Assembly (NCBI GenBank): GCA_963768055.1
Contig: CAVYGN010000001.1
Location: forward strand, 1,632,001 to 1,696,000
Length of the DNA: 64,000 nt
Direction of reading: 5' to 3'
Source of the DNA: an uncultured Spirochaetota bacterium
Lineage (GTDB): Bacteria > Spirochaetota > Brevinematia > Brevinematales > JAOACQ01
The translations under genes and the position numbers were made by a program. The notes under the pieces are model-generated. The model was not told the DNA's origin. It did not search any database and saw nothing but the letters and a program-made list of their open reading frames with translations. Shown here in pieces: positions 1,913-57,805 of the stretch. The stretch's first letter is position 1. Every line of letters starts with the position of its first letter.

Positions 1913-2659
1913 TCAAATAGTTTTCCCTTCCTTCCGGAAAGATTTTCCATCTTTGGATTTTACCAGGATTTTAATTGAGCCTGAAACAAGGCGGTCAAGC
2001 ATAGCCCCTCCAATCACAGGATCAGGGAAGATTGCCAGCCAGTCCTCCGGAGGCCGGTTGCTTGTCAGAATAATGGACCTGTTTCCAAGCCTTTCATCGA
2101 CAATCCGGTATAGGTATTCCGTTTCTTCATTGTCGAGTTTTTTAAATCCGAAATCGTCTATTATCAGGAGGTCTGTTTTAATACACTTTCTGAATAGAGT
2201 ATTCTTAAACATAAGCTTTTCGCTTTTCAAGTCTTCAAGAAGAACCGCGGCTTTCTTGAAAAGAACTGTGTTTCCTCTTCTGCAGGCCTCATGGCCGACT
2301 GATTTTGCAATGCATGTTTTACCTATGCCGGGAGGCCCGGCGATGACAACAAACTGTCTCATATCCATGAAACGGCAGGACGCGATTTCACGAATAAGCC
2401 TTGAAGGGATAGCGCTCTCATTGAAATTAAAATCAAACCCCTCGAAAGTGTTTTCCTGGCCGAACTTCGCTTCTCTCAGCCTCTTTTTGAGCATGTTATT
2501 ATCCCTCTGGCATAATTCATCCTGAACTAACAAAGAGAAAAATTCTCCATAGTCCAGGTTTGATTCTTGAGCCTCCCTGATCCGCATAGGAAGGTTGAAT
2601 AGCATCCCAGGAAGCTTTAACCTCCTTAAGTTTGCCTCAAGCTGATTCTGATGTTCCAT
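1913..2659 (-). CDS. istB: IS21 helper ATPase IstB
   Basis: GPPGIGKT Walker A, LLIIDDFG Walker B, TSN and A(M)LDRL motifs. Confidence 0.95.
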   Translation of the reverse strand: MEHQNQLEANLRRLKLPGMLFNLPMRIREAQESNLDYGEFFSLLVQDELCQRDNNMLKKRLREAKFGQENTFEGFDFNFNESAIPSRLIREIASCRFMDMRQFVVIAGPPGIGKTCIAKSVGHEACRRGNTVLFKKAAVLLEDLKSEKLMFKNTLFRKCIKTDLLIIDDFGFKKLDNEETEYLYRIVDERLGNRSIILTSNRPPEDWLAIFPDPVIGGAMLDRLVSGSIKILVKSKDGKSFRKEGKTI

Positions 2660-2677
2660 ATTTCCTCCTCATTATCT

Positions 2678-4221
2678 CTATTGAAAGTAATAGCTGCCGT
2701 CCCTGGTCATTTCAGACCCTTCTTCTGAAATTTCAAACAGGGTGTCCTGTTTATCCTTTCCTTCATTTTCCATCCAGCTTTTGAATAGTTTGGGATCGGT
2801 TATTTTTGCCGATATTGCTCTTTCACAGACTTTATTAAAGTATTCTTCTTTCGAGAATGTTTCCATTACACTTAAGAACCCCAGGGCCCTCCGGCAATTC
2901 AGATTAGCATGAACAGCAAGGATTTGAAAGATCAACTGGTATGCGGCTTCTCCGTATTTCCTCGACTGGTCTAATAAATACTTGGGGTATCCCCCGGATA
3001 GCATCTCCCTTGTATTCTCCGGAAAATCAGTCTTTTCATATGCTGCATGTCCTCTTGGTACGACAAATTCCCGGATAAGTTTGTACTGGAAGAAGATCTT
3101 CACTAAATTGCCGGTTCTCCTGACAAAGACTTCCTCTCCACGATACCTGGGAGGCAGGGAATACCTCTTTTTCTCGAACTGGACAAATTGGTCCGGGTGT
3201 ACCTTGGCCTTTTTCCATACGGGAGTCTTAAACCTTTCTTCAGGAAGCTTCTTAAGCAGGGGCTTCTCTATCGTTTCAAATACCTCTATTGGTTTCAAAC
3301 CTGTTGTTCCATGGTTCCTCATCCCGTATTCATACCTGCACCATTCCAGAGCTTTGATGTTTAATTCCTTTAACGAGGCTCCGGGATTAAGGGCTTTAAG
3401 TTTTCTGAAAAGCTCTCTGGCAACAGGGACCATTCTCTCTATCTTGGCTTTATCCTTTGGTTTCCTTACCCTGCAAGGATCAAGAAAAGTATTGTAATAC
3501 TCCGCATAATCAGCATATGCCTGATTATATTTAGGATCGTAAAGGTCCGGTGATATGATGCCGGTTTTCAGATTGTCCAGGGATATTCTTACAGGCACAC
3601 CGCCGTAAAACTCCAGCATATCCACATTGCTTTCAACGAATGATTCCTGGTTTTGTGAATAGACATATTGAACAAATGGCAGCCTTGAACTCGACATTAT
3701 TCCGATAAAAGACTGCACGATCTTGTTGTGCCCCAGGTATTCCATTGTGCCGGCCCTGCCGTAGTCAAGCTGGATCTCCTGACCAGGGTTAGTTTCAATC
3801 CGGATGGTTTCCTTTAATTCTTTAGCTGTAAGGCCGCTCTTTATCGAGAATCTCTTGAAACTTGTATAGCTTATGTCCAGATTATGCCTTATACAGACAA
3901 CTTCAAAGGCTGTCTTGGGTTTCATTCCGTTTTTCGGGTCATTTATGAGCCCGTACAGCTCATCTTTATATCGTTCAAGTATGCTTGTGCCTTATTTTCA
4001 TTTTTTGGAGGCCCTACAAAGGGGCGTTTCAGATGGAATTCTTCCCGGCTTATTGTTTCTCCCGCCTTTTCAAAGCCGTAATCGATAATTTTTTGAATCG
4101 CTAGTCGGACTGTTTTCCTATCCCTGTTTTCCTGTTCGGAAATTTCACTTATGCTTTGATCGGCTTTCCATCGTCTGTAAATGTCATAGTAATCCTGTTC
4201 GTTCATAAATCTGTACCCCAT
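2678..4221 (-). pseudogene. istA: IS21 transposase IstA with a frameshift near 3985-3995
   Basis: N-terminal HTH part in ORF 3943-4221; DDE core (QLDYG, DNLK, KAKIER) in ORF 2678-3925, in another frame that opens just after a TAA near 3992. Confidence 0.85.
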
Positions 4222-4812
4222 CCATTCCCCTCCGGTTTTTTCCGGAGAGTATGTTTGATTTTTTAGATTCTGAACAGGAAAAGGTGGGTGGGGAATCTCA
4301 TGGCCCTGGATGCTAAAAAGTGGGGAATGTGGTGGCCCTGACCCTGGGGAATCTCATGGCCCTATTTTGCCTTTTTACTGGGGAATCTGGGTGGCCCCGG
4401 ACAGCCGGACCATATTTAACCCTAGAACCTGCTCTGCAAACAGACATGCGAACTGCGGTTACTAACACAAATGATAAAAAATTTTTAAAGGTTAAAGATA
4501 ATTTTTATGAAGCAATCGGAAAAGATAAGAAATACTTTCTGGGTACGATAGGTTTTGATACCTATATTTTTAATAGTGTAGTTATTATTGGGTTAAACTG
4601 GTATTGGGAGGCAGAATTTGATGCAAATAATGCAAACGATTCGGATAATGGGAAAGGACAGGGGGTATTGTACTATTTTTATCATTTTGATAAAGGGGTA
4701 AGATATTGTGTATGTATGATACATGATAAAGATTTCGACTCGTTGAAATTCATGGAACGTTTTAAGTTGACTGGAAAATAATGTCGGATTGTTGAATAAA
4801 GGCTAGTTTTCC

Positions 4813-4878
4813 TCAAATGGTGAAATTCAAGGTTTCCAATACTGAAATTATTTCCCTTGATGAGTAAAGCTTAGACAT
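4813..4878 (-). pseudogene. Truncated HicA-like toxin remnant (MSKLYSSREIISVLETLNFTI*)
   Basis: Overlaps the stop of the HicB-like gene; resembles a HicA N-terminus but stops after 21 codons. Confidence 0.55.
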
Positions 4879-7421: not shown

Positions 7422-7919
7422 CAATACAGCACGTAAAGTGAAAGAAAAATAGATATGTCTCAAATTTTTTACTAGGAAAAGGTATTTTAACCTAATTTAT
7501 GTTATAACAATAATCATGTTGCTTAGTGAACATTGTTATTATTTTAAACATATGTCCTACGGCAACCTACTATCATCAGGTACAAAATTAAAAAAGGCAA
7601 GTTGATTTTCTTATCTATCTCAAATCCCGGTGATTTGAAGGGAAATATTGCATTTATCAGCCGTGATATGGGATTACAATGACAAATGGTATCATTGACA
7701 AAAGGTTCCCGGTCGGCATAAAATTCAAAGGCGTATATTTAATTTTGCAGGGAAATCAATAGCGCATATCGAAAGAAATGTCTTTTGCACAAAACCGGTA
7801 ATTAGCTTTCATTTACAGATTGTTGAAAGGTAATATGGTGTACGCCGGTTCTTCGTTTGACTAATAAAAAGCAATGCTATAAACAATTTGCATAAGAATA
7901 GATCTTCTTGAGGCATCGA

Positions 7920-8053
7920 ATGCCGAGAGTATTGTATATTAATGGTTTCCGGTTTTTCTTTTTCAATAATGAACGGAACGAGATGCCGCATTTCATATTA
8001 TAATCTCCGATCTGGAACTATTAAAGGAGGCATGGCATGGATACTTCGGTTAG
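7920..8053 (+). pseudogene. DUF4160-like toxin gene with internal deletion
   Basis: N-terminus MPRVLYINGFRFFFFNNERNEMPH joined directly to C-terminus DLELLKEAWHGYFG* in another frame; overlaps the DUF2442 gene start. Confidence 0.7.
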
Positions 8054-8291
8054 ATCAGGGCCGTTTTCAATATCAGCAAGAGCTATAGATGTAAAGACCA
8101 CAAAAGAAGAATTATCAGTATATCTCGAGGATGGAAGGAAATTGTCTGTCCCTCTGGAATGGTTTCCGAGGCTGCGGGACGCTACGGAAGCAGAGCTGGC
8201 TGATTGGGAATTTATCGGCGGCGGCATCGGCATTCACTGGGAAAAGCTTGACGAGGACATTTCAGTCCGCGGGTTGCTGGAATCGGAATAG
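8037..8291 (+). CDS. DUF2442 domain protein (putative antitoxin)
   Basis: LEDGRKLSVPLEWFPRL..AT......W...GGGIGIHW..LDEDIS. Confidence 0.85.
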   Translation: MDTSVRSGPFSISARAIDVKTTKEELSVYLEDGRKLSVPLEWFPRLRDATEAELADWEFIGGGIGIHWEKLDEDISVRGLLESE

Positions 8292-8414
8292 AAATCAGGA
8301 GAAATACCCTCTTGTTGGAGGTGTTTTTTCAATCCTAGAAGAAGAATTGAAGAATAAAATAGACCTTTTTACTGGTGAATCTGGGTGACAGATTGCATAT
8401 TGATCGATTCGGCC

Positions 8415-24814: not shown

Positions 24815-24949
24815 TTAAGGGCGGTTCCAAAAGCTCAACTCTTCAAAAATTTAAAAAATTGAAGCTAATAATTCCGCCCTATGGGCCCTACCTTGCTGCC
24901 CCAAAGGGCTTGTCCCCGTAAGGGGGGCAGTTTTTAGAAGGGCCCTTAA
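24815..24949. mobile_element. MITE-like repeat copy 1
   Basis: TTAA-GGGCGGTTC...GAAGGGCCC-TTAA; right half nearly identical to 46185-46321. Confidence 0.7.
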
Positions 24950-41128: not shown

Positions 41129-41197
41129 CTTTTAAGAATATTACTAAATATTTTTATACTAATATTAGAATTTAATTATAAAATACATTAAAATTTC

Positions 41198-41282
41198 TTA
41201 AGGGCGGTTATAATACCTCAAGAATATTATCATTTAATATAACATTTTTCTGCTTAACTCCATATGTACTTGCGCCCCTTAA
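41198..41282. repeat. Degenerate MITE-like copy
   Basis: TTAAGGGCGGTT at the left end and GCCCCTTAA at the right; interior divergent. Confidence 0.4.
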
Positions 41283-43502: not shown

Positions 43503-44900
43503 TTAGATTTTCTCTTCGTCGCATAAAATCAGCAGGGCCTTTAAAAAATCTCTCCTGCTTTCCGCTATCCGGTAATCTTCGAATTTTTTTATTTTAATCT
43601 TGCCTCCGAGCACGTCTTCGTAGATATTTAAGAGAGGGCCCGATAGTATTGAATAAACCCAATCTCTGGCCATGTTTTTAAGCGCGAATACAACCTTTGC
43701 GAAACCTATTTCATCAACTATGAGATCAACCGAGTCTCCGCCGGAAATTTTTCTCATTACCTCTTTGTTGAAATCCATTTTTCCTACCAGGGGAGCATAT
43801 GTTAAATCTTTAACTTTCCTGTAGAATTGAGCTAGAGAGAGAAACCGCTTTTCCTCGGTAAGCGACCGCGAGAATTCCACATCCTGTCTTATGAGTTCAA
43901 CTCCATCCTTCGATACATATTTTTCAAAGAAGCCTGCTGCATCGTTCCATTCAGCAAATGAAAGGGCTTCTACAAGGACCTTTCTCCTGATTTCCGAAAG
44001 AATGGCTTGAAAATTCGAATCCCTGTCGAAGGCTGCCAGCCATTCCGCAACACTTCTTGCCTGCAGCATATGTTTTGCCGCATTCCGCTCGTAACTCCTC
44101 GATATAAAATCAAGCGCTTCCATCCCTTTGATGATTATATCAAGTTCCCTGGCTGCGGCATACAGGTTTCGATGAATAATGTATTTGACCTCTTCGGACC
44201 AGCGGTATGTGGATTTTAAACGGGCGAGTTTCACTTTTTCAATGACCTGTGCTCTTACCGATTTCGAGAGGTTGTCTGTTATCCTTAATCCGTCGTCTCC
44301 AAGGCCATAGATATATGAAGCAAGCATATCGGCTGATGCTATATTTTTATGGAGAATATGGTTTAACAGCAGTTGAAGGTCCCTGTCCGATACAGATAGG
44401 ATAGAATCGGAAAAATTCGGGGGAGGACCCGATAGTTTCCTGTAAAGAATCTTTTCCAGGGCGCGTATGTGGCCTTCATCGATGAAATCATCCAGGTCGC
44501 TGATAGAATGCCCCAGGATTTTAAATATATTCTTGATATTGCTTTCGAATAGGGACAAAGACCCGGCGAAAACACCAGGACTGCCGTAATTGTAAGGAAC
44601 AGCCAGGTATTTATTAAACAAGTTACCCGAAAACAACGGCGGCCTGACCTGTAAAAAAACTTTTTTGCCGCTTATGAGGGATATTATTTTATAGTTTTCA
44701 ATTTCCTTTGTTACAGTGCTTCGAAGCAATTCAGCTGTCAAATTACCGGCCGCAGCCACGCTTAAAGCTGCACAGTCGTCTACCGAATCCTGTTTACTGA
44801 AGATCCTCACAGCCAGAAGGATGCTTCCGGACGGCCGGCCGGATGAAACTTTATGATATCCCGGATTGAAATTCCGGTTTAATAAAAGATTTCCTATCAT
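43503..44900 (-). CDS. Hypothetical protein with FliG C-terminal-like repeats
   Basis: SVSDRDLQLLL...NLSKSVRAQVIE resembles FliG_C; weaker repeats follow. Confidence 0.5.
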   Translation of the reverse strand: MIGNLLLNRNFNPGYHKVSSGRPSGSILLAVRIFSKQDSVDDCAALSVAAAGNLTAELLRSTVTKEIENYKIISLISGKKVFLQVRPPLFSGNLFNKYLAVPYNYGSPGVFAGSLSLFESNIKNIFKILGHSISDLDDFIDEGHIRALEKILYRKLSGPPPNFSDSILSVSDRDLQLLLNHILHKNIASADMLASYIYGLGDDGLRITDNLSKSVRAQVIEKVKLARLKSTYRWSEEVKYIIHRNLYAAARELDIIIKGMEALDFISRSYERNAAKHMLQARSVAEWLAAFDRDSNFQAILSEIRRKVLVEALSFAEWNDAAGFFEKYVSKDGVELIRQDVEFSRSLTEEKRFLSLAQFYRKVKDLTYAPLVGKMDFNKEVMRKISGGDSVDLIVDEIGFAKVVFALKNMARDWVYSILSGPLLNIYEDVLGGKIKIKKFEDYRIAESRRDFLKALLILCDEEKI

Positions 44901-44920
44901 GAATTAATATTAATTAAGAC

Positions 44921-46150
44921 TTACATGTTTTTCAATATCTCCCCGGCGAATTCGCTTGTCTTAACTTCTTTTGAACCTTCTATCTGCCTCGCGAGGTCGA
45001 AAGTCACCGTCTTGCTCATTATAGTCTTTTCAAGGGCTTTTTTTATAAGATCGCCTGCTTCATTCCAGCATATATATTCAAGCATCATAACCCCTGATAG
45101 TATGACTGAGCCGGGATTGATCCTGTCCTGGTTTGCGTACTTGGGAGCCGTTCCATGGGTGGCTTCAAAAACGGCGTGATGCTCGCCGATATTCGACCCC
45201 GGGGCCATGCCGAGGCCCCCGATCTGGGCTGCTATAGCGTCGGACAGGTAATCGCCGTTCAGGTTAGTTGTAACTATAACATCGTAATCTGAAGGTCTTA
45301 AAAGGACCTGCTGGAACATGCTGTCTGCGATCCTGTCTTTGACAATAACCTTGCCGGATATTTCAGGTCCGGTTATTTCCGACTCGAGAATCACTTTATC
45401 CCTGAATTCCCCCGTGGCTACTTCATAAGCCCAATTCTTGAAAGCGCCCTCCGTATACTTCATGATATTGCCCTTGTGTACGATCGTAACGCTTTTCCTT
45501 TTATTCTTCACCGCATAATCAAGAGCCTTCCTCGCTATACGCTTGCTTCCGAATTCGCTTACAGGTTTTATTCCTATCCCCGAATCTTTTCTTATATCTT
45601 TTTTCATGGTATTTCTTAAAAAGTCAATGACGAGCCCTGCTTCTTTCGACCCTTCCTGCCACTCGATTCCGCTGTATACGTCCTCCGTATTTTCCCTGAA
45701 AATGATCATATCGACATCATCCGGATTTTTAACGGGAGAGGGTGTTCCCTTATAAAACTTAACCGGCCTTATACAGGCGTATAGATCGAGAAGCTGGCGC
45801 AGAGTCACGTTAAGGCTTCTGAAGCCTCCTCCGACAGGAGTTGTCAGGGGCCCTTTTATAGCGACAATATACTCCTTAATAGCCTCAAGCGTCTCGTCGG
45901 GGAGATGGCTTTTGTAAAGGGATTCGGCTTTTTCACCGGCGAAAATCTCCATCCACAAAATCTCCCTTTTCCCGTTATAGGCTTTTTTGACTGCTCCGTC
46001 GAAAACCATTCGGGACGCTCTCCATATATCGGGCCCTGTCCCGTCGCCCTCTATAAACGGGATAATAGGGTTGTCCGGTATGGATAATTTGCCGTTTTCT
46101 ATCGCTATCTTTTTTCCGGCCGCAGGGACTTTGATATGCTGATAATTCAT
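44921..46150 (-). CDS. icd: NADP-dependent isocitrate dehydrogenase
   Basis: [54 protein letters not shown]. Confidence 0.98.
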
Positions 46151-46184
46151 AAATACCTCTGCCGATAAATAATATTAAAATTAT

Positions 46185-46321
46185 TTAAGGGCGGTTCTAA
46201 AAACTAACATTGTTATTAAAAAAAGATGGTCTTACAGTAATAAAACCGCCCAATGGGCCCTACCTTGCTGCCCAAAAGGGCTTGTCCCCGTAAGGGGGGC
46301 AGTTATTAGAAGGGCCCTTAA
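46185..46321. mobile_element. MITE-like repeat copy 2
   Basis: TTAA flanks; terminal inverted repeats GGGCGGTTCTAAAAACT / GGGCCCTTCTAATAACT. Confidence 0.7.
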
Positions 46322-46370
46322 TATTAATAATAAAGCGGTAAAAAGGCAATTTTGAATATCGAAACACCTG

Positions 46371-46734: not shown

Positions 46735-48786
46735 TTATTTACACATTGATATCAATTCTTTTAACTTTGATTCTATAAGTTTCCAGTCCTCATTATTGCT
46801 TTTATATGAAAACTCCATTATCTTTTTTTTAAAATCAAGTAATGAAATTCTTAATTTATATTCCTTATGAATATCAATTAATACTTGTTTTCCATCACAT
46901 TTAATTATCCATTTAGATTCCCAATCATCTTTAATAGAAGTTATACGTTTTTGGATTTCAGATAATACAACATCTTTTCTAAAATCTGTTTTTATTCTAA
47001 TAGAAGATGCTGCGATTTTATCTAGTATAGAAAATAAATTGTTTACAGTTTCTTCCGGATTATCAGTTAATATTTCTGTTATTTTTATATAAATTTCATC
47101 AGTTAAATATTTAAGTACAACATCTTTTGCTCCAATTTTGTTTATTTGCATAAATGCTATATTTTTTATTATTCCCAACATTGACCCTCTTGTCAATCCA
47201 TCCTGATTTGCTCCGTTTTCTTTGATAACATCAAATATTGTATCAGAATTAAGTAAATAATTTTCAAGGCAATATCTATCCCATTGAAGTAAGATAACAT
47301 TTTTAGTTGATTTCAAACTAGTTGGAAGATTATCAAGATCAAACAAGAATAACTGATATGAGTCAAGTGTACCTTTTTTATCTTCATCTTGAAGAGTTTT
47401 AATATTTTTTTCAATTTCTTTTCTTCCACCTAAATACTTTGCCGCATAACCAGGCATAATGGTAGTAATAGCAAAATCTAAAAGTTCTGTGTCATGAGGA
47501 CCTTCTAAGTAAATAATGCCTTTAGTCGATAATAAATCTGTACTACTTGAGCCTAATTTTTGTAGAACACTAAATACTTCAGCTTTATCCTTTTTATAAA
47601 TTACCGAAATATCATTTCCGGATATTAAATGATAGATTTTGCAATCATTTCTCTCAAAAGCAGTTGCAAACATTTCTGGGCTATGAGTACTAAGAATAAT
47701 TTGTCTATTTTTTACATTACAAACAGTATCAATGAGATAATTTATAATCTTCTTTTGGACTGCTGGATTTAAATGTAGTTCGGGTTCATCAAAAAGAATT
47801 ATTCCATTTTCATTAGTAGTAAGATCCATAAATAGTATAGTTAATAATAAATTTTTTTCGCCAGAACTCATACTATCTATATCGTAATGGCTTCCTTTTA
47901 TAGTATCATTTATCCATATTGAAATATTTCCATTTGGATTTATTCCAACTCCACCAAGATTTTTTCCAGGAAGTAATGAGTCAAATATTAATTCAAATGT
48001 TTCTTCTATCATTTTCTTAGATTCATTACTTGAAAAATACATGTTAATAATAAATTGTTTTATTAATAGGTATTTTGATTGTGGGTTTGCAATATACGAT
48101 TGAAGCTGCTGATTCGCATTTTGAAAACCGATTTGTAACGGTTGATCACCCAAAGGCAAAGATCTATCTGCTGGAAAATAATTAAAATAAGAATATGAAT
48201 ACCCACTTGTCTCACAAAGTATTGCAAGAAACTCTTGATCTAATAAAGAAGAACCAGATATAAGTAGATTATCTATAGTTAAACTTGCAATAGCCTTCTT
48301 TGTAGTCAATAGAGTTTTCAAATAAGAATCGATTTCCAAACGACCTAATTCCATCATCTGTTTTCCAGGTTCACTACTGAGATATTGAGCTTCAGAAAAT
48401 GATTCACGAAAAACAGGAAATCTATTTGTATTTTGCAAATGCTTAATAATCAGATTATTAAAGAAAGATTTTTTTACAGTTTCTATTTCTGATTCCTCAA
48501 TAGAATATTCAATTGATATCTCAAGCTTTTTGGTTCGATCATTTAACAAAGTGTTTGTAATAACACCTTGTTGATTTGGACTAATAGCTTTAATACTAGT
48601 TAAAACCATATTTGTTTCACCTTGTATGTTTGGAAATAAAAAAGCCTTATTTAAACGAATAGCCTCGAAAATGGTTGATTTACCAACAGCATTTGGACCT
48701 ACGATTAAAATTCCTTGAGCATCCGTGTTAAATTCAATATCTTTTATACCTTTAAGATTAATTATTCTAATTTTGGTAATTTTCAT
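46735..48786 (-). CDS. ABC-type ATPase fused to a TOPRIM nuclease (OLD/PARIS-like defence candidate)
   Basis: GPNAVGKS, MSSGEK, FDEPELHL, STHS; then YLEGPHD, FDLD, RYCLENYL, CDGK. Confidence 0.8.
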   Translation of the reverse strand: MKITKIRIINLKGIKDIEFNTDAQGILIVGPNAVGKSTIFEAIRLNKAFLFPNIQGETNMVLTSIKAISPNQQGVITNTLLNDRTKKLEISIEYSIEESEIETVKKSFFNNLIIKHLQNTNRFPVFRESFSEAQYLSSEPGKQMMELGRLEIDSYLKTLLTTKKAIASLTIDNLLISGSSLLDQEFLAILCETSGYSYSYFNYFPADRSLPLGDQPLQIGFQNANQQLQSYIANPQSKYLLIKQFIINMYFSSNESKKMIEETFELIFDSLLPGKNLGGVGINPNGNISIWINDTIKGSHYDIDSMSSGEKNLLLTILFMDLTTNENGIILFDEPELHLNPAVQKKIINYLIDTVCNVKNRQIILSTHSPEMFATAFERNDCKIYHLISGNDISVIYKKDKAEVFSVLQKLGSSSTDLLSTKGIIYLEGPHDTELLDFAITTIMPGYAAKYLGGRKEIEKNIKTLQDEDKKGTLDSYQLFLFDLDNLPTSLKSTKNVILLQWDRYCLENYLLNSDTIFDVIKENGANQDGLTRGSMLGIIKNIAFMQINKIGAKDVVLKYLTDEIYIKITEILTDNPEETVNNLFSILDKIAASSIRIKTDFRKDVVLSEIQKRITSIKDDWESKWIIKCDGKQVLIDIHKEYKLRISLLDFKKKIMEFSYKSNNEDWKLIESKLKELISMCK

Positions 48787-48964: not shown

Positions 48965-49666
48965 TTATTGCAATAATATTTCAGATTGGCTATCATCTTT
49001 TATAATATATTTATTAACTAATTCAATAATGGATTTGCATTCTAAAAAAGGATATATTTTACGAATAGCTTCATCTAAAACTGTTAAATTATAATCTCCA
49101 CTCCAGCGTTCTGATTCAGAGATTGTAATATTATTCCCATGCTTTAAATATTTTTCAAGTAAATCCAGACCTAATTCTTTTTGTCCTTTTTCATCTCTAG
49201 CATGCCTTGCTTTTGCTACTGTAGACCATGGATCTCTGCCAGCTTTTTCACCTTTTCCATGTATTAATGATAAGATTCTAGCAACTTTATGAGCCTCATT
49301 TATTGAGTATATTGTACAAGGAACTTTTAAATTATCCCTTTTCCATTCATCTGAAATGGTTTTAATCTTTATTGAGATTTCTCTTGGGATTTCGATTTCA
49401 GTTAAAAATCCATGTAAGATTTTTAATGATGCTACTCTACGATTTCCCTCTTTTACAAGATGAATTCCTTTGTCAAACATAATAATGATATTTTCTGTAG
49501 GGAAATAACCATTATCTAATAGGCTTTCTAGCAATCCCCAAAAATAATCAGGACTTATAGCAATCATAGTATTAACAGCATCTATATCACTTTTTTTATG
49601 GATTGTTCTGAAATTATCAAGATCTAATGATAATTTATCAACAGAGATTTCCCCTAATGTTGGCAT
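48965..49666 (-). CDS. ParB/Srx-like N-terminal domain protein, possibly truncated
   Basis: LSLDLDNFR and VKEGNRRVASLK motifs. Confidence 0.6.
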   Translation of the reverse strand: MPTLGEISVDKLSLDLDNFRTIHKKSDIDAVNTMIAISPDYFWGLLESLLDNGYFPTENIIIMFDKGIHLVKEGNRRVASLKILHGFLTEIEIPREISIKIKTISDEWKRDNLKVPCTIYSINEAHKVARILSLIHGKGEKAGRDPWSTVAKARHARDEKGQKELGLDLLEKYLKHGNNITISESERWSGDYNLTVLDEAIRKIYPFLECKSIIELVNKYIIKDDSQSEILLQ

Positions 49667-50506: not shown

Positions 50507-50581
50507 AAATAGAAAATTGCTATTGACAATATTTTCCTCCACATTATACTTTTACCAAAATTCTTAAAGGAGGAATTGAAA

Positions 50582-50809
50582 ATGGCAGACTTTAAAGTCG
50601 GTGATGTTGTTAGATTAAAAAGTGGTGGACCTGATATGACCATCATTGAAATTTATGGAGATTCAAAAAACACCCCAAATGCTTATGTAGCCAGATTAAA
50701 ACATAGGATAGAAGGAGATTTGGTTTGTCGTTGGTTTGATTCAGGAAAGCAAACTGTTGATTTCTTTGGGCCAAACGAAGTGGTACTTATTCCTTCGGGG
50801 CAACAGTAA
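50582..50809 (+). CDS. YodC/DUF2158 family protein
   Basis: FKVGDVVRLKSGGPDMTI...CRWF; GGAGG RBS. Confidence 0.85.
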   Translation: MADFKVGDVVRLKSGGPDMTIIEIYGDSKNTPNAYVARLKHRIEGDLVCRWFDSGKQTVDFFGPNEVVLIPSGQQ

Positions 50810-50969
50810 GAGGGCTAAATTCCATCATCGTAGCATAAATGATCTTCTGATTGTTGTATATTGCCCCACCAAGAACAGATGAGGGTTCCTCATCTTTTAC
50901 TTTTTCAACAATCAAATCAGGACTTCCTGATTTAAGTTTTACCTTATCCCCTTTTTTGTAGTTTTTCAT
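50787..50969 (-). pseudogene. Second YodC/DUF2158-like gene, truncated
   Basis: YKKGDKVKLKSGSPDLIV N-terminus; lacks the C.WF C-terminus. Confidence 0.55.
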
Positions 50970-51121
50970 TGTAATTTTACCTTGCTTTCCTTTATACTAA
51001 ATATAAACGGGCAGACAAAATTTCAGAAGGAAAATTGTATGATACAACGTGAACTTAGGAGACTAATTAGAGAATCACGTCTTTCTCAAGAAAGAAAGGC
51101 TGTTTGGAGAAATATATTAAA

Positions 51122-52780
51122 CCCACATTTCCCAGATGAAATTTTGTTTTCTTAGAGAAAACATGGCATAATCATATATCAGGATAGGAATTAGATTACT
51201 AAAAAACCTTCATAACTGGAGGATTCAATGGGTGAAAGCCAAAATCAGGCATTACGAGTCGATTTTGATAAGAGTCTAAGGCTTGAATTTCATGGTTCAA
51301 CCATTACTTCTGATGCCGGACTACTTGCTTATCGTGAACTTGATGACGCATTGGGATTGACAGACATTGCGGCAAAGTGCCTGAAAGATATCAGATTTGG
51401 AAAGAACAAACAGCATAGTATTGCAGCACAATTGCGGCAATCCGTATTCAGCAGGCTTGCGGGATATGAAGACACAAATGATGCGGAACGTCTTTCCGTT
51501 GATCCTGCCATGAGGCAGGTTGTCGGGGGAAGAGCTCTTATTCATACGGCTGCGTCAACGAGCCAGATGGGAAGGTTTGAAACTGAAGTTCTAACTCTTC
51601 CGGATAACATCAAAGCCCTTATGAATCTTTCCGGGCAATGGATTGACAGGTTAAGGGATCAGGTTCCCATGAGAAATCTTGTTCTCGATATGGACAGCTC
51701 TGTGAGTGAAACATATGGAAGACAGGATGGGACTGCATATAATGGACACTTTGGATGTACTTGTTACCACCCCCTTTTTTGCTTCAACCAGTTTGGCGAT
51801 GTCGAGTTTGCCCTTCTTCGGGAAGGTAATGTACACAGCGCTGATAACTGGAAAAAAGTATTAGATCCAATTGTTGCCCGTTACCGTAATAGAAAATTTC
51901 CTCATTACTTCAGAGGGGATGCCGGCTTTGCCAAACCCGAGATTTACGAGTACCTGGAATCAGAACATTTCAAGTATGCCATTCGCTTACCAGCCAATGA
52001 TATTTTATACAGTGAAATCGGACATCTCCTTACAAGGCCGGTAGGACGGCCGTCATATACACCTGTTGTCTGGTACCATGAATTCCTGTATAAAGCGGCA
52101 TCCTGGGCTCGTGATCGCAGGATAATAGCAAAGGTGGAATGGCACCAGGGAGAACTCTTTCCCAGGGTCGGTTTTATCGTTACAAATCTAAGGGCTAAAA
52201 AGAAGAAAGTAGTCCATTTTTACAATATGAGGGGAACAGCGGAACAATGCATTAAAGAGGGTAAGAATGCTGTAAAGTGGACAAGGCTCTCCTGTCATGA
52301 TTTTATCGATAATCATGTCCGGCTCCAGTTATTTGTCCTTGCCTACAATCTTGGAAACTTCTTCCGGCATTCAGCTTTACCCAGAGTAATGAAACACTGG
52401 ACCATGACGACACTCAGGGAAAAGCTAATAAAAATCGGTGCAAAGGTTGTCAGCCATGCTCGCTATGTGGTTTTCCAGATGGCGGAAGTCGCCGTCCCGA
52501 AAGGGCTGTTTGCCGTTATCCTTGATAGATTACATAGATTAAGGCTACTGTTTGGCGTTGGTTAATACTATTTATTTGATATCGGATTTTTCAAGGGGTT
52601 ACTGTCGCCTTTTTGTTTAAAGGTTAGCAGAACATCGCCTGAAATCTGATTTTATGTTATTATCGAATGAATTTTATATAAAGAAACCTGGATTTTAATG
52701 TTGACAAAGTTATTTTACGGAATCATAATAAATCAATCCATTAAATGGGAGAGTTTGGGGTGTCATTTGGGAAATATCGG
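51122..52780 (+). mobile_element. IS1380 family insertion sequence (1659 bp)
   Basis: 18-bp inverted repeats CCCACATTTCCCAGATGA / CCGATATTTCCCAAATGA; 5-bp target duplication TTAAA at 51117-51121 and 52781-52785. Confidence 0.93.
51228..52565 (+). CDS. IS1380 family transposase
   Basis: [39 protein letters not shown]. Confidence 0.95.
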
Positions 52781-53171
52781 TTAAACAGTGGCAGAGATGA
52801 TCAAGATATCGATTTAAATGTATTAAGAGAAGCTTGCTTAAACAATAATCAATCAGAAACAACAAGAAGGGCTACCGATCAAGCTTTAAGTGATTATCAA
52901 ATAGAAAACATAATTCTATACAATTATCATATAGAAGAAAATACCAATTTAATCAGAGATATAGATTCTTTATTATCAATACCCCATGTATAGTATTTTT
53001 TTATATAAAAGCTTTTTTTTGCTTCGTCAAGTGCATAGTTCCGAATTTATATTGTCAAAATTCATTATTACTTTTTATTGGAGAATTTGTTAAGGAAGTA
53101 AACATTTTTATTGATTTTATAAATTTGCGTAATCCGGGGCACCAGACGAAACCTTCCATGTAATCCGTTTC

Positions 53172-53372
53172 AAATCTGCCACCTAATCCTGTTGAACCCT
53201 GCCGGGTATTCCGGGTGAAATTTCCCCTGGATGATTTGATTAGATATGATGGTTGGGGATTTTAGCTTGTAATTTAAGGGGATTCTATTTTGGAAACACC
53301 CAGGGGAATTCGCCATTCATTTAATTTTCTTTAATACGTTTTTCAAATTCTATCATAAATTTGACTATTGAA
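53172..53372. repeat. Left direct repeat of the RiPP cassette, including an XRE 3' remnant (53321-53371)
   Basis: Imperfect match to 57281-57474; minus strand encodes SIVKFMIEFEKRIKEN* versus STVEFMIEFEKRINEN* in the intact XRE. Confidence 0.85.
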
Positions 53373-53397
53373 TGACAGAATTTATTAATTAATTAAA

Positions 53398-54123
53398 TTA
53401 TTCACAAATAATATGTTGAGTTGGAATAGTCTGATATTCAATATCATAAATCCAAAAGTTTCCAACATTATTAAAGGGAAACCAACAATCACTCTTATTT
53501 GGTACCCTAAATTTTTCTAACCTGTATGTATCTTTATTCTGATTTGAGTATTCAACCTGACAAAATACTATCCCTATTCCTTTAGCTAATACTACTAATC
53601 TTTTTGTGTAACAGTAACCAGTATAATTTAAAGGAAACTCGAAGGAAGATTCAACGGCAATACAGTTAGATATTTTCCTCTTAATCTTATTTGGAATTTT
53701 ATCATACGGAACACTATTAAGCCTTTTGGTTTTTATTTTTGTCTTAAATCCATCACTTTCTTGATTTTCAATCCATTCAGAACTTTCATGAAGGATGTAT
53801 TTACCTGGTGAGATTATGACATGGGTAAATGAATTTATAAACGCGTACCTATTAACATAAATAATTTCAGAGTTGTTAGTTAGTAATAGATCCATAAAAC
53901 CCACTGCATTATCAAGACTGCTTTTGGTTAGAATTAAACGCATTGAATGAATAAATCCAGTCGACTCCTGATGAGATACTTTTTCTATTACCTGATAACA
54001 TTCTTTATGATGTCCACCTCCTTTTATACGATACTTTGAAGAAAAGTAAATGTTAAGATAATATCCGATAAACGCTAGAACAAGAGCTATTATTATTGAA
54101 ATTAAAGTCATTGATTGATCCAT
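53398..54123 (-). CDS. Membrane-anchored hypothetical protein, last gene of the RiPP cassette
   Basis: N-terminal TM helix; starts 35 bp after the rSAM-2 stop. Confidence 0.7.
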   Translation of the reverse strand: MDQSMTLISIIIALVLAFIGYYLNIYFSSKYRIKGGGHHKECYQVIEKVSHQESTGFIHSMRLILTKSSLDNAVGFMDLLLTNNSEIIYVNRYAFINSFTHVIISPGKYILHESSEWIENQESDGFKTKIKTKRLNSVPYDKIPNKIKRKISNCIAVESSFEFPLNYTGYCYTKRLVVLAKGIGIVFCQVEYSNQNKDTYRLEKFRVPNKSDCWFPFNNVGNFWIYDIEYQTIPTQHIICE

Positions 54124-54158
54124 ATTTGAAATCCTTAAGTAAACGGAATCTTATTTTA

Positions 54159-55481
54159 TTAATTTATTTGTTTGCTCCAGCACATAACATCCTTTCTACG
54201 AATTCCATCATTGGTAAGATTGTAATTGCATCCACCACCACATTTATTTATAAACTTACATCCAATACAATCAAGTGGTGATTTTGATATTATTTCCTTA
54301 CCAAATTCTGCTGCTTTTTGCCATATTTTTTCAAGAGAGTCTTTTGGATATTTGCCAAGATGATAATTTCTCATATGTGGACATGGTGTAACAGTCCCAT
54401 CCGCACAAATATTAAGCACATCATTTCCAGCATTACAAGGACCAAGAACAGAATAGCTTTCATTAACTAAGTGCGGGTAAAAACATAAAGGTTCAAACCC
54501 GATAACAGTTTCACTATGTTTTTTTTCAAGCAAAACTAATTTTCTGGAAACTTTTTTTAACTCATTTATACTCAAGGAAAGCTTTTCTCCATTTGGTCCG
54601 GAAGGCATATAACGAAAAACCACAAATCTATCAGCTCCATTTTTAAATGCTAAATTCGCAGTTTTTTCTATCAGGTTCCAGTTTATAGATGATACTGTCA
54701 TTGCGACTCTAGTTTCGATACCAATTTTGGAAAATATTTTAAGCGCATTAATAGCCTTATTATAAACTCCATTACCACGAATATAATCATGAACAGTAGG
54801 CGGACCATCTAAACTTATCTGTGCAATACCCAAACCTGCATTTTTTAGTTTTATCGCATTTTTATTGGTTATAAAAACACCACTAGTACTAATAGCAGTT
54901 TTTATTTTTGTTGAAGCACAACGACTCAAATATTCCGGAAGATTTTTGTCAAGGGTCGGTTCGCCTCCTCCAAAACCAACAGTCATAACTCCAAGTTTTG
55001 TTAGTCCATCTATAAGTTGAAATACCCACTGACTCCTATCTTCAAAATTTTTCTCTTTCTTAATCTTTGCCCTTGTATAGCAGTGAATACATTGCAAGAT
55101 ACATTTATCTGTAATTTCAATAAAAGCGCTAAGTGGCGCTGAAAGCTTTGGGGTAAATTTTAAATTTACTTTTGTGAAATTATATCTATCGAATCTGGGG
55201 AAGGAATTATTATCAACAACCTTTAGTATTCCTATTTGAGATAATTCATTAATAAAGCTTTCGATCATATTTTTATCGATTCTCGGGTATTTTATTAGCA
55301 CCTTTTCGGTAAGATTTCTAACAGATATTGGAATTTTGCAATTCTCAAGAATTGTTGTTCCAACTCTATTAAGTTTAAAAAATTGGGGAACATCAGGTCG
55401 CTCAAGTTCAAAAGGTACTAAAATAATTGAGCCGAAAGTTTCATTCCTTAAATTAATTCCTTTATGTAAAAATACCTTCAT
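54159..55481 (-). CDS. Radical SAM/SPASM peptide maturase with fused PqqD-like RRE (rSAM-2)
   Basis: CILQCIHC, GGGEP; SPASM CNAG...PCPH...CIGC....CGGGC; N-terminal LRNETFG...KLNRVGTTIL...FINEL RRE pattern. Confidence 0.92.
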   Translation of the reverse strand: MKVFLHKGINLRNETFGSIILVPFELERPDVPQFFKLNRVGTTILENCKIPISVRNLTEKVLIKYPRIDKNMIESFINELSQIGILKVVDNNSFPRFDRYNFTKVNLKFTPKLSAPLSAFIEITDKCILQCIHCYTRAKIKKEKNFEDRSQWVFQLIDGLTKLGVMTVGFGGGEPTLDKNLPEYLSRCASTKIKTAISTSGVFITNKNAIKLKNAGLGIAQISLDGPPTVHDYIRGNGVYNKAINALKIFSKIGIETRVAMTVSSINWNLIEKTANLAFKNGADRFVVFRYMPSGPNGEKLSLSINELKKVSRKLVLLEKKHSETVIGFEPLCFYPHLVNESYSVLGPCNAGNDVLNICADGTVTPCPHMRNYHLGKYPKDSLEKIWQKAAEFGKEIISKSPLDCIGCKFINKCGGGCNYNLTNDGIRRKDVMCWSKQIN

Positions 55482-55567
55482 GGGTTTCTTCTCAGTAAAA
55501 ACTTAACAATAGCATCGATGAAAGCTCCTGACTCACAATGGCTTGGATTAACCTCCGCAACAATCAT
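55478..55567 (-). CDS. 29-aa ORF coupled by ATGA overlaps to both neighbours (MIVAEVNPSHCESGAFIDAIVKFLLRRNP)
   Basis: Start overlaps the precursor stop and stop overlaps the rSAM-2 start; GGGAG 5-6 nt upstream. Confidence 0.45.
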   Translation of the reverse strand: MIVAEVNPSHCESGAFIDAIVKFLLRRNP

Positions 55568-55782
55568 AATAGCTCCCAAGGTTTCTTTACACCATAAGCT
55601 TTACATGGTCCACAAGACCAATCAGGGCGCTGTGAACACGAAATATGAAGTGGAACTATTTCAGGTATTTCCTCCAATAATAAATCACTTCTAACGAGAT
55701 GCTCATCCGCATCTTTTTGCAATTTGCTCTCATTTACAATGTCTTTAGGTAATTCACCTTGATATAAGTCTGTTTTTTCCAT
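55564..55782 (-). CDS. Putative RiPP precursor peptide (72 aa)
   Basis: GGAGG RBS; acidic leader with DLLLEEIPE; core HISCSQRPDWSCGPCKAYGVKKPWELL; lies between two rSAM/SPASM genes. Confidence 0.8.
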   Translation of the reverse strand: MEKTDLYQGELPKDIVNESKLQKDADEHLVRSDLLLEEIPEIVPLHISCSQRPDWSCGPCKAYGVKKPWELL

Positions 55783-55796
55783 AAGTACCTCCAAAT

Positions 55797-57038
55797 TTAA
55801 TTTGCCATTTTATTATTTTTAGCCCATTTGCCACTATAGGGGTCATACAAGCATCTATTGTTTTTTTTATAAATGTTATTTATATTTTCTTCATAAGCCA
55901 ATGGTCTGCAATCTGTACAAATATACTTAAATTCACATTCTTTACATATTTGCACATCATCCAATGTCAGTGTCCAAGGCTGCGAAATTGCAACATCAAT
56001 AATATCTTCAAAATTATCAGTAATTATATCTCCCAATATCAAGTCTCGAGCATGAGGGCATGGGACAACTTTACCATCGAAACGTAAAAACAGCATGTTT
56101 CCCCAACATGAATTATATCGTTTAGAATATAGGAATGATTGTGGTGTCGATTCAAAAAAAGGAGCATTTCTTATATTATAATATTTTTTGCACTTTAAAT
56201 ATTTATTCCTTCCTCTACCAAAAGGCCTTACTGGGTCTGGCTCACCGAAATGTAAATTCATTTTTTTACAAAAGCTAATAATATCTTCATATTGATTTTC
56301 AGTTTCAGACATCAATATAATTGAGGCATTAACAGAAACACCAGCATCTTGAAGAAACTTTATATTCGAAATCATTCGCTTAAATGAACCTTGTGAATTT
56401 GTTAATCGATCATGTGTTTTGGCATCAGCTGCAAGTATTGTAGTGCTTACAATAATATCATATTGGGCTATTCTCTTTAAAAGGTTTCTATTATCCGTAG
56501 AAAGATTAGAAAATATCTCAATTTCTTTTACTTTATTCTTTATTGAAAAATCAATAAAATGAAGAAGGTCTTTCCTTAAAAGAGGTTCCCCTCCAGTAAA
56601 TTGTATTGATTCACATCCAAGTATAAAAACATTTTGAAGAAAATTTTGGATTTTGTCTGTCTCTAAACCTTTTGACGCCTTGGGTGATGCTGTAGCGTAG
56701 CAATGGACACATCTTTGGTTACACTTATTTGTCAATTCAACCCATATTTTTTTAAATGGTTTTTTAGGTAGAGGACCCATAGAAATTGTTTCATTATTTA
56801 ATGAACCATCATCTTTTAAAAATTGATATTTAATGAGTTCATTAAAAATGCTGCGAGGAAGAATCTTACTTAAATTTTCAACCGGCTTTTTGATTATATT
56901 TTTTATAATTTGAGTAGCAGCTTCGTTTACATGATAAGCTTTAGCAAGTTTAAGATCATAAATTAATGAGCATTTTGCCCCAAAAACTGTTTGGAAACGA
57001 TCATGTGAAGAGAACGGTGTTTGAAGTTGGAATTTCAT
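55797..57038 (-). CDS. Radical SAM/SPASM peptide maturase (rSAM-1)
   Basis: CNQRCVHC, FTGGEP; SPASM CWGN...PCPH...CKECEFKYICTDC...C; RRE-like N-terminal extension. Confidence 0.92.
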   Translation of the reverse strand: MKFQLQTPFSSHDRFQTVFGAKCSLIYDLKLAKAYHVNEAATQIIKNIIKKPVENLSKILPRSIFNELIKYQFLKDDGSLNNETISMGPLPKKPFKKIWVELTNKCNQRCVHCYATASPKASKGLETDKIQNFLQNVFILGCESIQFTGGEPLLRKDLLHFIDFSIKNKVKEIEIFSNLSTDNRNLLKRIAQYDIIVSTTILAADAKTHDRLTNSQGSFKRMISNIKFLQDAGVSVNASIILMSETENQYEDIISFCKKMNLHFGEPDPVRPFGRGRNKYLKCKKYYNIRNAPFFESTPQSFLYSKRYNSCWGNMLFLRFDGKVVPCPHARDLILGDIITDNFEDIIDVAISQPWTLTLDDVQICKECEFKYICTDCRPLAYEENINNIYKKNNRCLYDPYSGKWAKNNKMAN

Positions 57039-57280
57039 AACCTTCCCTTTTGAGCAAACAATAAATTATACGAAACTAAATATTTAGAAACATACTATTG
57101 TTATTGTATTACAAATCCATTCAATATTTAGTTTTGCTCATTGAATAATTGATAATTCGAGCATATTTTTTAATGTATTTTGTTAACCTCTAAATAATTA
57201 TTTTTGATAATTAATCATATCTCTTAAAATAGTCAAAGTCAAGCATTATCATTGGATATTATCATTGGAAAATCCGGGTG

Positions 57281-57474
57281 AAATATGCCACCCAATCCGG
57301 CGGAAACCTGCCGGTAAGTTTAACCTTCCCCTGGATGATTATATCGGTGATGGTAGGGGGATTTTAGCTTGTAATTCATGGAAATTCTATTTTGGAAACA
57401 CCAAGGGGAATTTTTTATTCATTCAATTTTCATTAATTCGCTTCTCAAATTCTATCATAAATTCGACAGTTGAA
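57281..57474. repeat. Right direct repeat of the RiPP cassette
   Basis: Shares ttcccctggatgatt, ggggattttagcttgtaatt and attctattttggaaacacc.aggggaatt with the left copy. Confidence 0.85.
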
Positions 57475-57671
57475 ATTTTAAGGGCCTCACACATATTAAT
57501 AAATTCAAGAAAGTCTACCCTGCGCTCACATTTTTCAAATTTGCTTATAACCGCCTGTTTTGTGCCTATCATTTCAGCAAGGCCGGCTTGTGTTACATCC
57601 TGCTTTCGTCTATATTCCCTGAGCAGGGATATAAATATTTTGTATTTCTTATTGAAAAGACTCTTTTCCAT
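57423..57671 (-). CDS. XRE family HTH regulator
   Basis: LREYRRKQDVTQAGLAEMIGTKQAVISKFEKCERRVD. Confidence 0.9.
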   Translation of the reverse strand: MEKSLFNKKYKIFISLLREYRRKQDVTQAGLAEMIGTKQAVISKFEKCERRVDFLEFINMCEALKISTVEFMIEFEKRINEN

Positions 57672-57712
57672 TAACTCTTATCCAAATAAAATCAGTATAA
57701 TATTTGTTGTAA

Positions 57713-57733
57713 TATAATCCTAATAGGATTATA
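57713..57733. promoter_or_regulatory. Perfect palindrome between the divergent XRE and ankyrin genes (candidate operator)
   Basis: TATAATCCTA-A-TAGGATTATA. Confidence 0.55.
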
Positions 57734-57805
57734 ATATTACTATTATGAATAAAATATATTGATTTAAGTAATCAATTGATTTCAATATCTAGGAGGATTT
57801 ATTAT

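Follow-up and report, generated by a model that had tools for sequence, protein, structure and literature searches.

A peptide gene between two dissimilar radical SAM/SPASM enzymes in a Spirochaetota genome: a probable mobile cassette for a modified peptide outside the named families

A 64,000-nt stretch of DNA from an uncultured Spirochaetota bacterium (assembly GCA_963768055.1, contig CAVYGN010000001.1, positions 1,632,001 to 1,696,000; hereafter the window, in whose numbering positions are given) contains a minus-strand operon in which the gene of a 72-residue peptide lies between the genes of two radical S-adenosylmethionine (SAM) enzymes, rSAM-1 and rSAM-2. We consider it probable that these three genes make up a small cassette that moves horizontally and specifies a ribosomal peptide modified by radical SAM enzymes, and we regard it as very probable that the peptide is the substrate of at least one of the two enzymes. 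Systems of this kind are already well known, as leader-guided radical SAM/SPASM peptide cassettes have been described before, two-enzyme ones included; by the family models searched, however, no named family fits this cassette. It looks like a real, undescribed and fairly conventional pathway for a peptide that is made on the ribosome and modified after translation (RiPP). A preliminary description had listed five minus-strand open reading frames (ORFs) within 53398-57038, and the ORF listing returned the same coordinates and lengths. The features are as follows (aa, amino acids; RRE, RiPP recognition element).

55797..57038, minus strand: rSAM-1, 413 aa, with an RRE-like winged helix, a radical SAM core and a full SPASM domain
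55564..55782, minus strand: predicted precursor peptide gene, 72 aa from ATG
55788..55792, minus strand: Shine-Dalgarno sequence GGAGG, 5 nt ahead of the peptide ATG, read from the sequence
55478..55567, minus strand: spacer between the peptide gene and rSAM-2, open here as a 29-aa ORF
54159..55481, minus strand: rSAM-2, 440 aa, with an RRE, a radical SAM core and a full SPASM domain
53398..54123, minus strand: gene, beginning 35 nt past rSAM-2, of a 241-aa protein that has a single hydrophobic segment, likely a membrane segment, at its N-terminus

Both enzymes are complete, RRE-bearing radical SAM/SPASM maturases that are distantly related to each other. The Pfam Radical_SAM model matches rSAM-1 with E = 2.4e-21 and rSAM-2 with E = 6.6e-20, and the SPASM model, whose cut-off is 21.5 bits, scores 25.1 and 29.9 bits on the two (E = 2.1e-5 for rSAM-1). 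The cluster motif of rSAM-1 is C106-x3-C110-x2-C113, with GGEP at 149-152 and a seven-cysteine SPASM set (C311, C327, C365, C368, C374, C377 and C396); cluster motif, GGEP and all seven SPASM cysteines are invariant in seven orthologues and in a wider alignment of 48 sequences. The rSAM-2 counterparts are C127-x3-C131-x2-C134, GGGEP at 171-175 (G172-G-E-P) and C349, C367, C405, C408, C414, C418 and C434. Across 31 sequences, C127, C131, C134, C349, C367, C405, C408 and C414 are kept, while C418 and C434 are nearly invariant. Judged by these motifs, both maturases are apparently active. AlphaFold2 (AF2) models of the two proteins, with a mean predicted local distance difference test score (pLDDT) of 89.0 for rSAM-1 and 88.4 for rSAM-2, each contain an RRE-type N-terminal domain of four strands and three helices, spanning about residues 10-70 of rSAM-1 and about residues 2-88 of rSAM-2. 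Residues 31-86 of rSAM-2 match the Pfam PqqD model weakly (E = 0.0046; 17.7 bits, under the cut-off of 23.4), and the same model matches 10 of the 48 wider-family members of rSAM-1. Foldseek ranked SuiB first for rSAM-2 (E = 2.1e-21, TM-score 0.67-0.69) and returned SkfB, SuiB and CteB, in that order, as the top three for rSAM-1; these alignments are 430-470 columns long and hence cover the N-terminal domain. The two enzymes had been called dissimilar from the outset, and they share 24% identity by direct search and 21% by a profile alignment that runs end to end and includes the RRE (hhalign E = 8.5e-52).

As the preliminary description had supposed, neither enzyme falls within a named family, every NCBIfam match lying far under its cut-off. 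The best models for rSAM-1 are AhbD (93.7 bits against 500) and StsB (83.8 against 625), with SkfB also among the nearest. Those for rSAM-2 are GeoRSP (TIGR04303; 129.9 against 400), MftC (TIGR03962; 112.7 against 265) and PqqE (TIGR02109; 90.4 against 381), the last two of which score 62.1 and 53.4 bits on rSAM-1. These nearest models lean weakly toward a sacti-type rSAM-1 and an MftC/PqqE/GeoRSP-type rSAM-2. The grasp-with-spasm model TIGR04193 scores 74.5 bits on the C-terminus of rSAM-1 and 92-113.5 bits on wider relatives, against a cut-off of 175, and there is no ATP-grasp gene among the neighbors. None of 12 sampled wider relatives of both enzymes reached any NCBIfam cut-off. Orthologues are 54-79% identical for rSAM-1 and 51-83% for rSAM-2; outside them, identity is at most 36% for rSAM-1, and for rSAM-2 it is 35% for the next full-length protein and 41% for a truncated relative. 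Only one orthologue cluster of rSAM-2 occurs among 1.84 billion representatives (50% clustering).

The peptide divides into a variable zone (residues 1-36), a conserved, modelled recognition segment (E37-H46) and a near-invariant core (S48-L72; SCSQRPDW-x-CGPC-x-AYG...PWEL). It carries D33-L-L-L-E-E-I-P-E41 ahead of three cysteines spaced C49-x7-C57-x2-C60, together with W55, W69 and Y63. Among eight homologues, the first 36 residues are unalignable while residues 37-72 are almost invariant, and 20 residues between 37 and 64 are identical in all eight sequences (E37, P40, I42, P44, L45, S48-W55, C57-C60 and A62-G64). Selection on the reading frame is evident at the nucleotide level: over the final 36 codons, 10 of 10 pairwise comparisons show more synonymous than non-synonymous differences (18 against 6 between the window and locus L014; 16 against 7 and 22 against 4 in other pairs), which indicates translation of the frame and strong purifying selection on it. 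The corresponding 36 residues are near-invariant in a system whose enzymes vary more, at 51-83% identity. A core more conserved than its enzymes is the opposite of the usual bacteriocin pattern and resembles that of cofactor precursors. The strong ribosome-binding site proposed for the peptide is present, GGAGG lying 5 nt from the ATG, and because the TTG start of an alternative 76-aa form overlaps this site, the 72-aa form is the likely product.

Natural variation in the conserved part is limited. H46 is replaced by Gln in L014 and L016, and a His/Cys3 metal site (H46, C49, C57 and C60) that we had considered was dropped on that account. The peptide of L015 (1527-1733 of that locus) carries K61S and W69C, whereas its close relative P0004 retains both Lys and Trp; the L015 form may reflect either natural variation at two candidate crosslink positions or a misassembly. 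The sequence C57-G-P-C60-K equals the thioredoxin active-site motif. Homology of the peptide to thioredoxin was rejected, as neither Pfam nor a PDB profile search gave a match at E ≤ 10 and only the short CGPC(K) is shared. More generally, the peptide matched nothing in Pfam, NCBIfam or the PDB (Pfam, and the PDB by profile, searched to E = 10). Both tryptophans have a basic residue at position -3 (R52-P-D-W55 and K66-K-P-W69), an arrangement that recalls the Lys/Arg-to-aromatic crosslinks listed in PMC11851443.

The system is rare and its gene order is constant. Four peptide clusters, the window's own included, were found among 5.8 billion proteins. A genome scan yielded one locus in a metagenome-assembled genome (MAG), L010; a further candidate from that scan, L011, is not an orthologue (24% identity over 90 residues). 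A metagenome scan returned eight loci, of which five are real (L012-L016), the other three (L017-L019) being chance matches of 10-14 residues on GC-rich contigs that carry no radical SAM gene. L010 and L012 are one system and L014 is close to L016, so that the family comprises about six lineages with the proteins P0003 and P0004 counted. The order rSAM-1, peptide, rSAM-2 is complete in the window, in L010/L012 and in L014, and no informative locus breaks it, the remaining loci being cut (rSAM-2 by the contig end in L015, the peptide in L016 and the upstream side in L013). The peptide gene thus lies between both enzymes in every informative locus, as expected of the conserved precursor that had been postulated, and no characterized family has been matched. 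No peptidase or transporter family occurs among the window neighbors or in the L014 flanks, which agrees with the earlier observation that neither is encoded here. The peptide is absent from all 60 related genomes searched, including four of the same genus and 11 of the same family, and the G+C content of the operon is 31.8% against 40.8% for the whole window. Among viral contigs, 100 pattern matches gave no confirmed case. No RNA run was listed as containing the sequence. Three DNA runs of one study yielded short, low-depth, mostly identical contig pieces with no independent context, which are probably source material.

The claim that the core lies outside the known precursors also stood, as it has no family match and its motif was not found in print. 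Core motif strings returned no relevant publication among 8.1 million PMC papers and 0.36 million preprints, a search that leaves aside the supplementary tables of genome-mining surveys, where the enzymes could be listed anonymously. One core hexamer gave three matches, all in the conotoxin and tick literature. Searches of the literature on RiPP-type systems in general returned known systems only, and nothing relevant appeared under GeoRSP.

To model leader recognition, rSAM-2 was predicted in complex with the peptide. The complex scored 0.73 in each of three runs, compared with 0.01 for the best of three controls; of 157 solved complexes, 116 reach the mark used for such scores, as do 2 of 215 mismatched pairs (counts that apply only approximately, as our own alignments were used). 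The runs had at least 53% of contacts in common, with a pLDDT of 41-46 for the partner. The contacts predicted with confidence are made by residues 37-49 and 51 of the peptide and, on the enzyme, by residues 31-41, 44, 61-80, 85 and 102-118 and the SPASM stretch 346-355/367; the 31-41 zone takes in a strand (34-37) and the beginning of the first helix, and further contacts fall on the RRE helices. The docked peptide residues coincide with the sole conserved residues outside the core, and the modelled recognition segment is accordingly placed at E37-H46. The model bears in two ways on the preliminary description, which had recommended modelling an RRE-leader complex and had named DLLLEEIPE as the leader: the peptide is placed on the RRE of rSAM-2, and the C-terminal half of the proposed leader, from E37 on, is conserved and docked, whereas D33-L36 is not conserved. 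Docking of this sort is the textbook way for an RRE to hold a leader, and similar complexes already solved include SuiB-SuiA (5v1t) and ChlB-ChlA (9gm3).

We propose that the product consists of three parts: a dispensable, variable N-terminus, the recognition segment E37-E-I-P-E-I-V-P-L-H46 and the 25-residue core S48-L72. The recognition segment would pair as a β-strand with the third strand of the rSAM-2 RRE, and the homologous RRE of rSAM-1 would probably bind it likewise. Binding would deliver the core to the active site, where the [4Fe-4S] cluster of each enzyme would cleave SAM, the radical would take a hydrogen from a core residue, and two auxiliary SPASM clusters would help close an intramolecular crosslink. 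Both enzymes would act on S48-L72. Given that they are only 21-24% identical and that the catalytic motifs are intact in both, the most likely outcome appears to be that one core receives two different modification sets, a view that we hold tentatively and rate at slightly less than an even chance. One set might consist of Cys thioether(s), at C49 and possibly C57/C60, and the other of a carbon-carbon link to the aromatic ring of W55, Y63 or W69; the chances that the product contains at least one thioether appear evenly balanced. The near-invariant core, together with the lack of a peptidase or exporter, suggests either a single fixed target for the product or a role within the cell. The analysis shows the conservation of the genes, the domain architecture and the intact motifs, and the RRE docking is a model; crosslink types and sites, leader removal and product role are inferred.

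Several points weigh against this reading. The chemistry is a prediction. Secreted RiPPs usually come with a peptidase or exporter, neither of which accompanies the cassette at any locus. Because CGPCK is the thioredoxin active-site sequence, C57 and C60 may remain unlinked and serve as a redox or metal site, and the W69C replacement (with K61S) in L015 implies that W69 is not an absolute requirement. With about six lineages, the family is too small for covariation. In addition, since RRE-leader complexes have already been solved, the score of the modelled complex may partly reflect likeness to those structures; core residues 50-72 are not confidently placed, the low pLDDT leaves the fold of the partner uncertain, and the modelled docking covers rSAM-2 with the peptide alone.

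Among characterized systems, SuiB/SuiA, which makes the Lys-Trp crosslink of streptide (5v1q, 5v1t), is similar in its layout of RRE, radical SAM and SPASM domains and in holding the leader on the RRE as in our rSAM-2 model; the core here also contains Lys and Trp. However, SuiB is only 12-20% identical to the two enzymes, the KxxxW model TIGR04080 reaches 61.8 bits against 500, and streptide requires a single enzyme and a short precursor, whereas K66-K-P-W69 does not have the KxxxW spacing. Of the sacti- and ranthipeptide maturases (SkfB, CteB [5wgg/5why], StsB and PapB), SkfB (6efn) is the top fold match of rSAM-1 and the best PDB sequence match of both enzymes (E = 2.1e-13 and 3.3e-15), and the core here has three invariant cysteines. 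Nevertheless, the corresponding models stay under their cut-offs for both enzymes (AlbA, 65.5 and 66.7 bits against 850; SkfB, 64.9 and 81 against 300; StsB, 83.8 and 72.2 against 625), as does PapB (68.3 against 340), and the spacing C-x7-C-x2-C with its CGPC differs from the known sacti and SCIFF patterns. SynChlorMet (ScmE/ScmF) and His-Xaa-Ser (HxsB/HxsC) cassettes likewise combine two different radical SAM enzymes with a small peptide, and their chemistry is likewise uncharacterized. Unlike those cassettes, the one described here lacks their other genes, and its enzymes score low with their models (ScmE, 71.9 and 104.1 bits, and ScmF, 70.8 and 82.2, against 400; HxsC, 65.3 against 267.9; HxsB, 55.6 against 370).

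The explanation closest to the one we favor is that rSAM-1 and rSAM-2 form an obligate complex that installs one type of link, for example three thioethers at C49, C57 and C60, with one partner mainly handling the substrate. The precedent is thuricin CD, another peptide cluster with two radical SAM enzymes, for which, according to PMC12093266, both TrnC and TrnD are needed, work only together in a tight complex, and only TrnC's radical activity is absolutely required. In the present system, too, the enzymes always co-occur, each has an RRE-like domain, and the core offers three invariant cysteines. Yet in thuricin CD two precursors undergo one chemistry, whereas here there is one precursor and the enzymes are only 21-24% identical; CxxxCxxC, GGE and the SPASM cysteines are strictly kept in both, so that neither looks degenerate, and the nearest named models differ between the two. 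On balance we find an obligate complex of this sort unlikely, though worth keeping in mind. Alternatively, the peptide might be a cofactor-type precursor like PqqA or MftA, a few tail residues (Trp, Tyr or Cys) being crosslinked and excised to give a small intracellular redox molecule. A variable N-terminus, an invariant C-terminal core and the lack of an exporter are shared with the mycofactocin and PQQ systems; a tail of 36 near-invariant residues beside enzymes of 51-83% identity fits the pattern that cofactor precursors typically show, neither an exporter nor an immunity gene occurs among the window neighbors or in the L014 flanks, and MftC is the second-best named model of rSAM-2, which PqqE matches too. 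Set against this, both scores are far under cut-off, the RRE is fused here and not a separate MftB or PqqD, no MftD/E/F or PqqB/C gene lies nearby, and no peptidase, oxidase or dehydrogenase is conserved beside the three genes. The peptide ends in PWEL(L/V/I), as opposed to the Tyr-containing tails of MftA and PqqA. Moreover, 25 near-invariant residues are many more than a small cofactor needs, and the sporadic, strain-specific occurrence in a mobile region (none of 60 related genomes and none of four in the same genus) is unlike that of a metabolic cofactor with dependent enzymes. A cofactor precursor is therefore improbable.

Two further explanations take the CGPC motif as their starting point. 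The small ORF might not be a substrate at all but a Cys-containing redox or metal-binding protein, or a regulator, with the radical SAM enzymes acting elsewhere. CGPC resembles a thiol-disulfide redox center, the peptide is without a family match, and no product has been detected; however, the gene lies strictly between the enzymes in all informative loci, both enzymes have a peptide-recognition domain, in the model the RRE binds the conserved segment outside the core (0.73 against 0.01), and the Gln at position 46 in L014 and L016 means that a His/Cys3 metal site is not conserved. This is the explanation to which we give least weight, as very improbable. The other would make the product a new class of polycyclic peptide and not a secreted antibiotic, with crosslinks that rigidify the W-x-C-G-P-C-K dithiol as a miniature redox or decoy module. 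Such a peptide would be intracellular cargo of a defense or conflict island, for instance blocking a thioredoxin-dependent step of an invader, or would serve as a portable redox center. Consistent with this idea are a core more conserved than the enzymes, the lack of a peptidase, exporter or immunity gene, and the surroundings of the cassette: AriAB and a PD-Lambda-5_A fragment by the window copy, a HEPN protein near L014 and a tyrosine recombinase in L016. We regard it as a speculative idea, a shade less probable than a cofactor precursor.

If different crosslinks on one 25-residue core, as we tentatively favor, were borne out, the product would represent a so far undescribed type of compact polycyclic peptide, and the enzymes would widen the choice of leader-guided cyclases that work on peptides by radical chemistry. 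With three genes in ~2.9 kb the system is small, and its recognition segment has been narrowed to about ten residues, which makes co-expression straightforward. That the core stays invariant in hosts with little else in common, and in mobile, defense-rich DNA, raises the question of a fixed target. Uncharacterized radical SAM/SPASM peptide cassettes are numerous, and until its chemistry has been observed this one ranks as a good candidate and not as a surprise.

The remaining parts of the operon are less conserved. The 29-aa ORF shares an ATGA overlap with each of its two neighbors. It is indeed an open frame in the window, as had been noted, but it is not conserved: in the closest relative, L010, it stops after nine codons, and the other loci have a spacer of 54-82 nt with no such ORF. 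Going by this comparison it is probably not a gene, and its candidacy as a second precursor was ruled out by the interruption in L010 and its absence from the other loci. GC-rich hairpins, different in sequence in each lineage, are instead present in four of the five spacers and decayed in the window copy (RNA-fold z of -3.9 in L010, -3.2 in L014, -4.4 in L013 and -2.1 in L015, against +1.2 in the window). A hairpin behind the precursor gene is a familiar means of setting the precursor-to-enzyme ratio in peptide operons. Their positions, in the numbering of each locus, all lie between the peptide gene and rSAM-2:

L010, 2590-2626: spacer hairpin
L014, 4184-4203: spacer hairpin
L013, 256-282: spacer hairpin
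L015, 1749-1774: spacer hairpin

The 241-aa protein had been described as a membrane-anchored member of the operon. It is a real gene with an N-terminal hydrophobic segment; however, it does not follow rSAM-2 in L014, the sole other locus with enough sequence downstream of that gene, where unrelated ORFs without similarity to it are found instead. For this reason we treat it as lineage-specific. Its family contains two other clusters (64% and 47% identity), it has no match to a Pfam, NCBIfam or PADLOC family, and its best atlas score (0.80, DUF3108-like) is under the level of a usable lead. No copy was found in G061, the genome of L010, but this is an incomplete 1.5-Mb MAG and the absence carries no weight. 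From its distribution, it is probably an accessory gene of a real but rare family.

Upstream of rSAM-1, three features may bear on expression:

57214..57242, minus strand: candidate promoter, the best sigma-70-like match of a consensus scan (TTGACT-17-TATGAT, 10 of 12), upstream of rSAM-1
57073..57134, no strand assigned: perfect 12-nt inverted repeat AAACTAAATATT / AATATTTAGTTT with 38 nt between the arms, between the candidate promoter and rSAM-1
57423..57671, minus strand: HTH_3 (Xre-type) regulator gene, 82 aa, directly upstream of the operon (Pfam HTH_3, E = 2.1e-9)

The promoter is a candidate only, as the region contains 30 such matches against 25.8 expected. The inverted repeat could be an operator or a structure in the 5' untranslated region. 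The HTH_3 gene is not found beside the cassette elsewhere, the neighbors in L010, L014 and L016 being different. An Rfam scan of 52600-57800 gave no match at E up to 1.

The following repeats, defense genes and mobile elements lie around the operon:

53160..53372, no strand assigned: downstream copy of a direct repeat, carrying a remnant of the last codons of an HTH gene
57271..57474, no strand assigned: upstream copy of the direct repeat, whose start falls within the final 12 codons of the HTH_3 gene
46735-48786, minus strand: fused PARIS-type AriAB gene, 683 aa, AAA_15 and DUF4435 domains (PADLOC E = 3e-100, model positions 1-692 of 694)
48965-49666, minus strand: 233-aa ORF directly upstream of AriAB, matching the first 222 of 491 positions of the PD-Lambda-5_A model (E = 1.3e-101)
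about 51111-52785: IS1380-family element (transposase at 51228-52565; NCBIfam E = 2.4e-113)

The two flanking repeats are ~205 nt long and 78-86% identical to each other, and both keep a 15-nt inverted repeat, TTCCCCTGGATGATT / AAACACC.AGGGGAA. The remnant of the HTH tail in the downstream copy indicates that the 4.1-kb operon is bracketed by copies of one repeat. The distal ~60 nt (53160-53224) recur at two further sites on the other contig with 82-85% identity, so that a small dispersed element may make up part of the repeat. Compared as DNA, genomes of the same genus have 44015-46170 in common with the window and nothing else, the operon being unmatched in them. The IS1380 element has two 100% identical copies elsewhere in the genome, and many occur in one same-genus genome. 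The 233-aa ORF is either a truncated defense gene or a short form. At the other loci, L014 encodes a HEPN_Cthe2314-domain protein (7637-8410, E = 2.4e-10) 2 kb downstream of the cassette, and L016 encodes the C-terminus of a tyrosine recombinase (2-238, E = 5.8e-19) upstream of it. That the cassette is mobile cargo in variable, defense-rich DNA is only a lead, the association coming from two or three loci. PADLOC has no system model for the three genes; the enzymes give only generic radical-SAM-core matches to pVip (46-65 bits), and the peptide and the 241-aa protein give none.

Other repeats and mobile elements were seen elsewhere in the window. A GC-rich repeat of ~85-165 nt, in an otherwise AT-rich genome, occurs at 24866-24949, 46238-46321, 46165-46205 and 41178-41218, and the stretch 46169-46334 has dozens of copies (75-93% identity) across both contigs. 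An IS21-type pair at 1913-3925 on the minus strand, consisting of an IstB-like ATPase (E = 5.9e-57) and a protein with a Mu-transposase-C domain, is flanked by 254-nt direct repeats at 1152-1405 and 4599-4852 that are 76% identical. Finally, two convergent, overlapping small ORFs (50576-50809, plus strand; 50787-50969, minus strand) encode similar KxGDxVxLKSGxPD sequences, and one of them matches DUF2158 (E = 8.3e-13).

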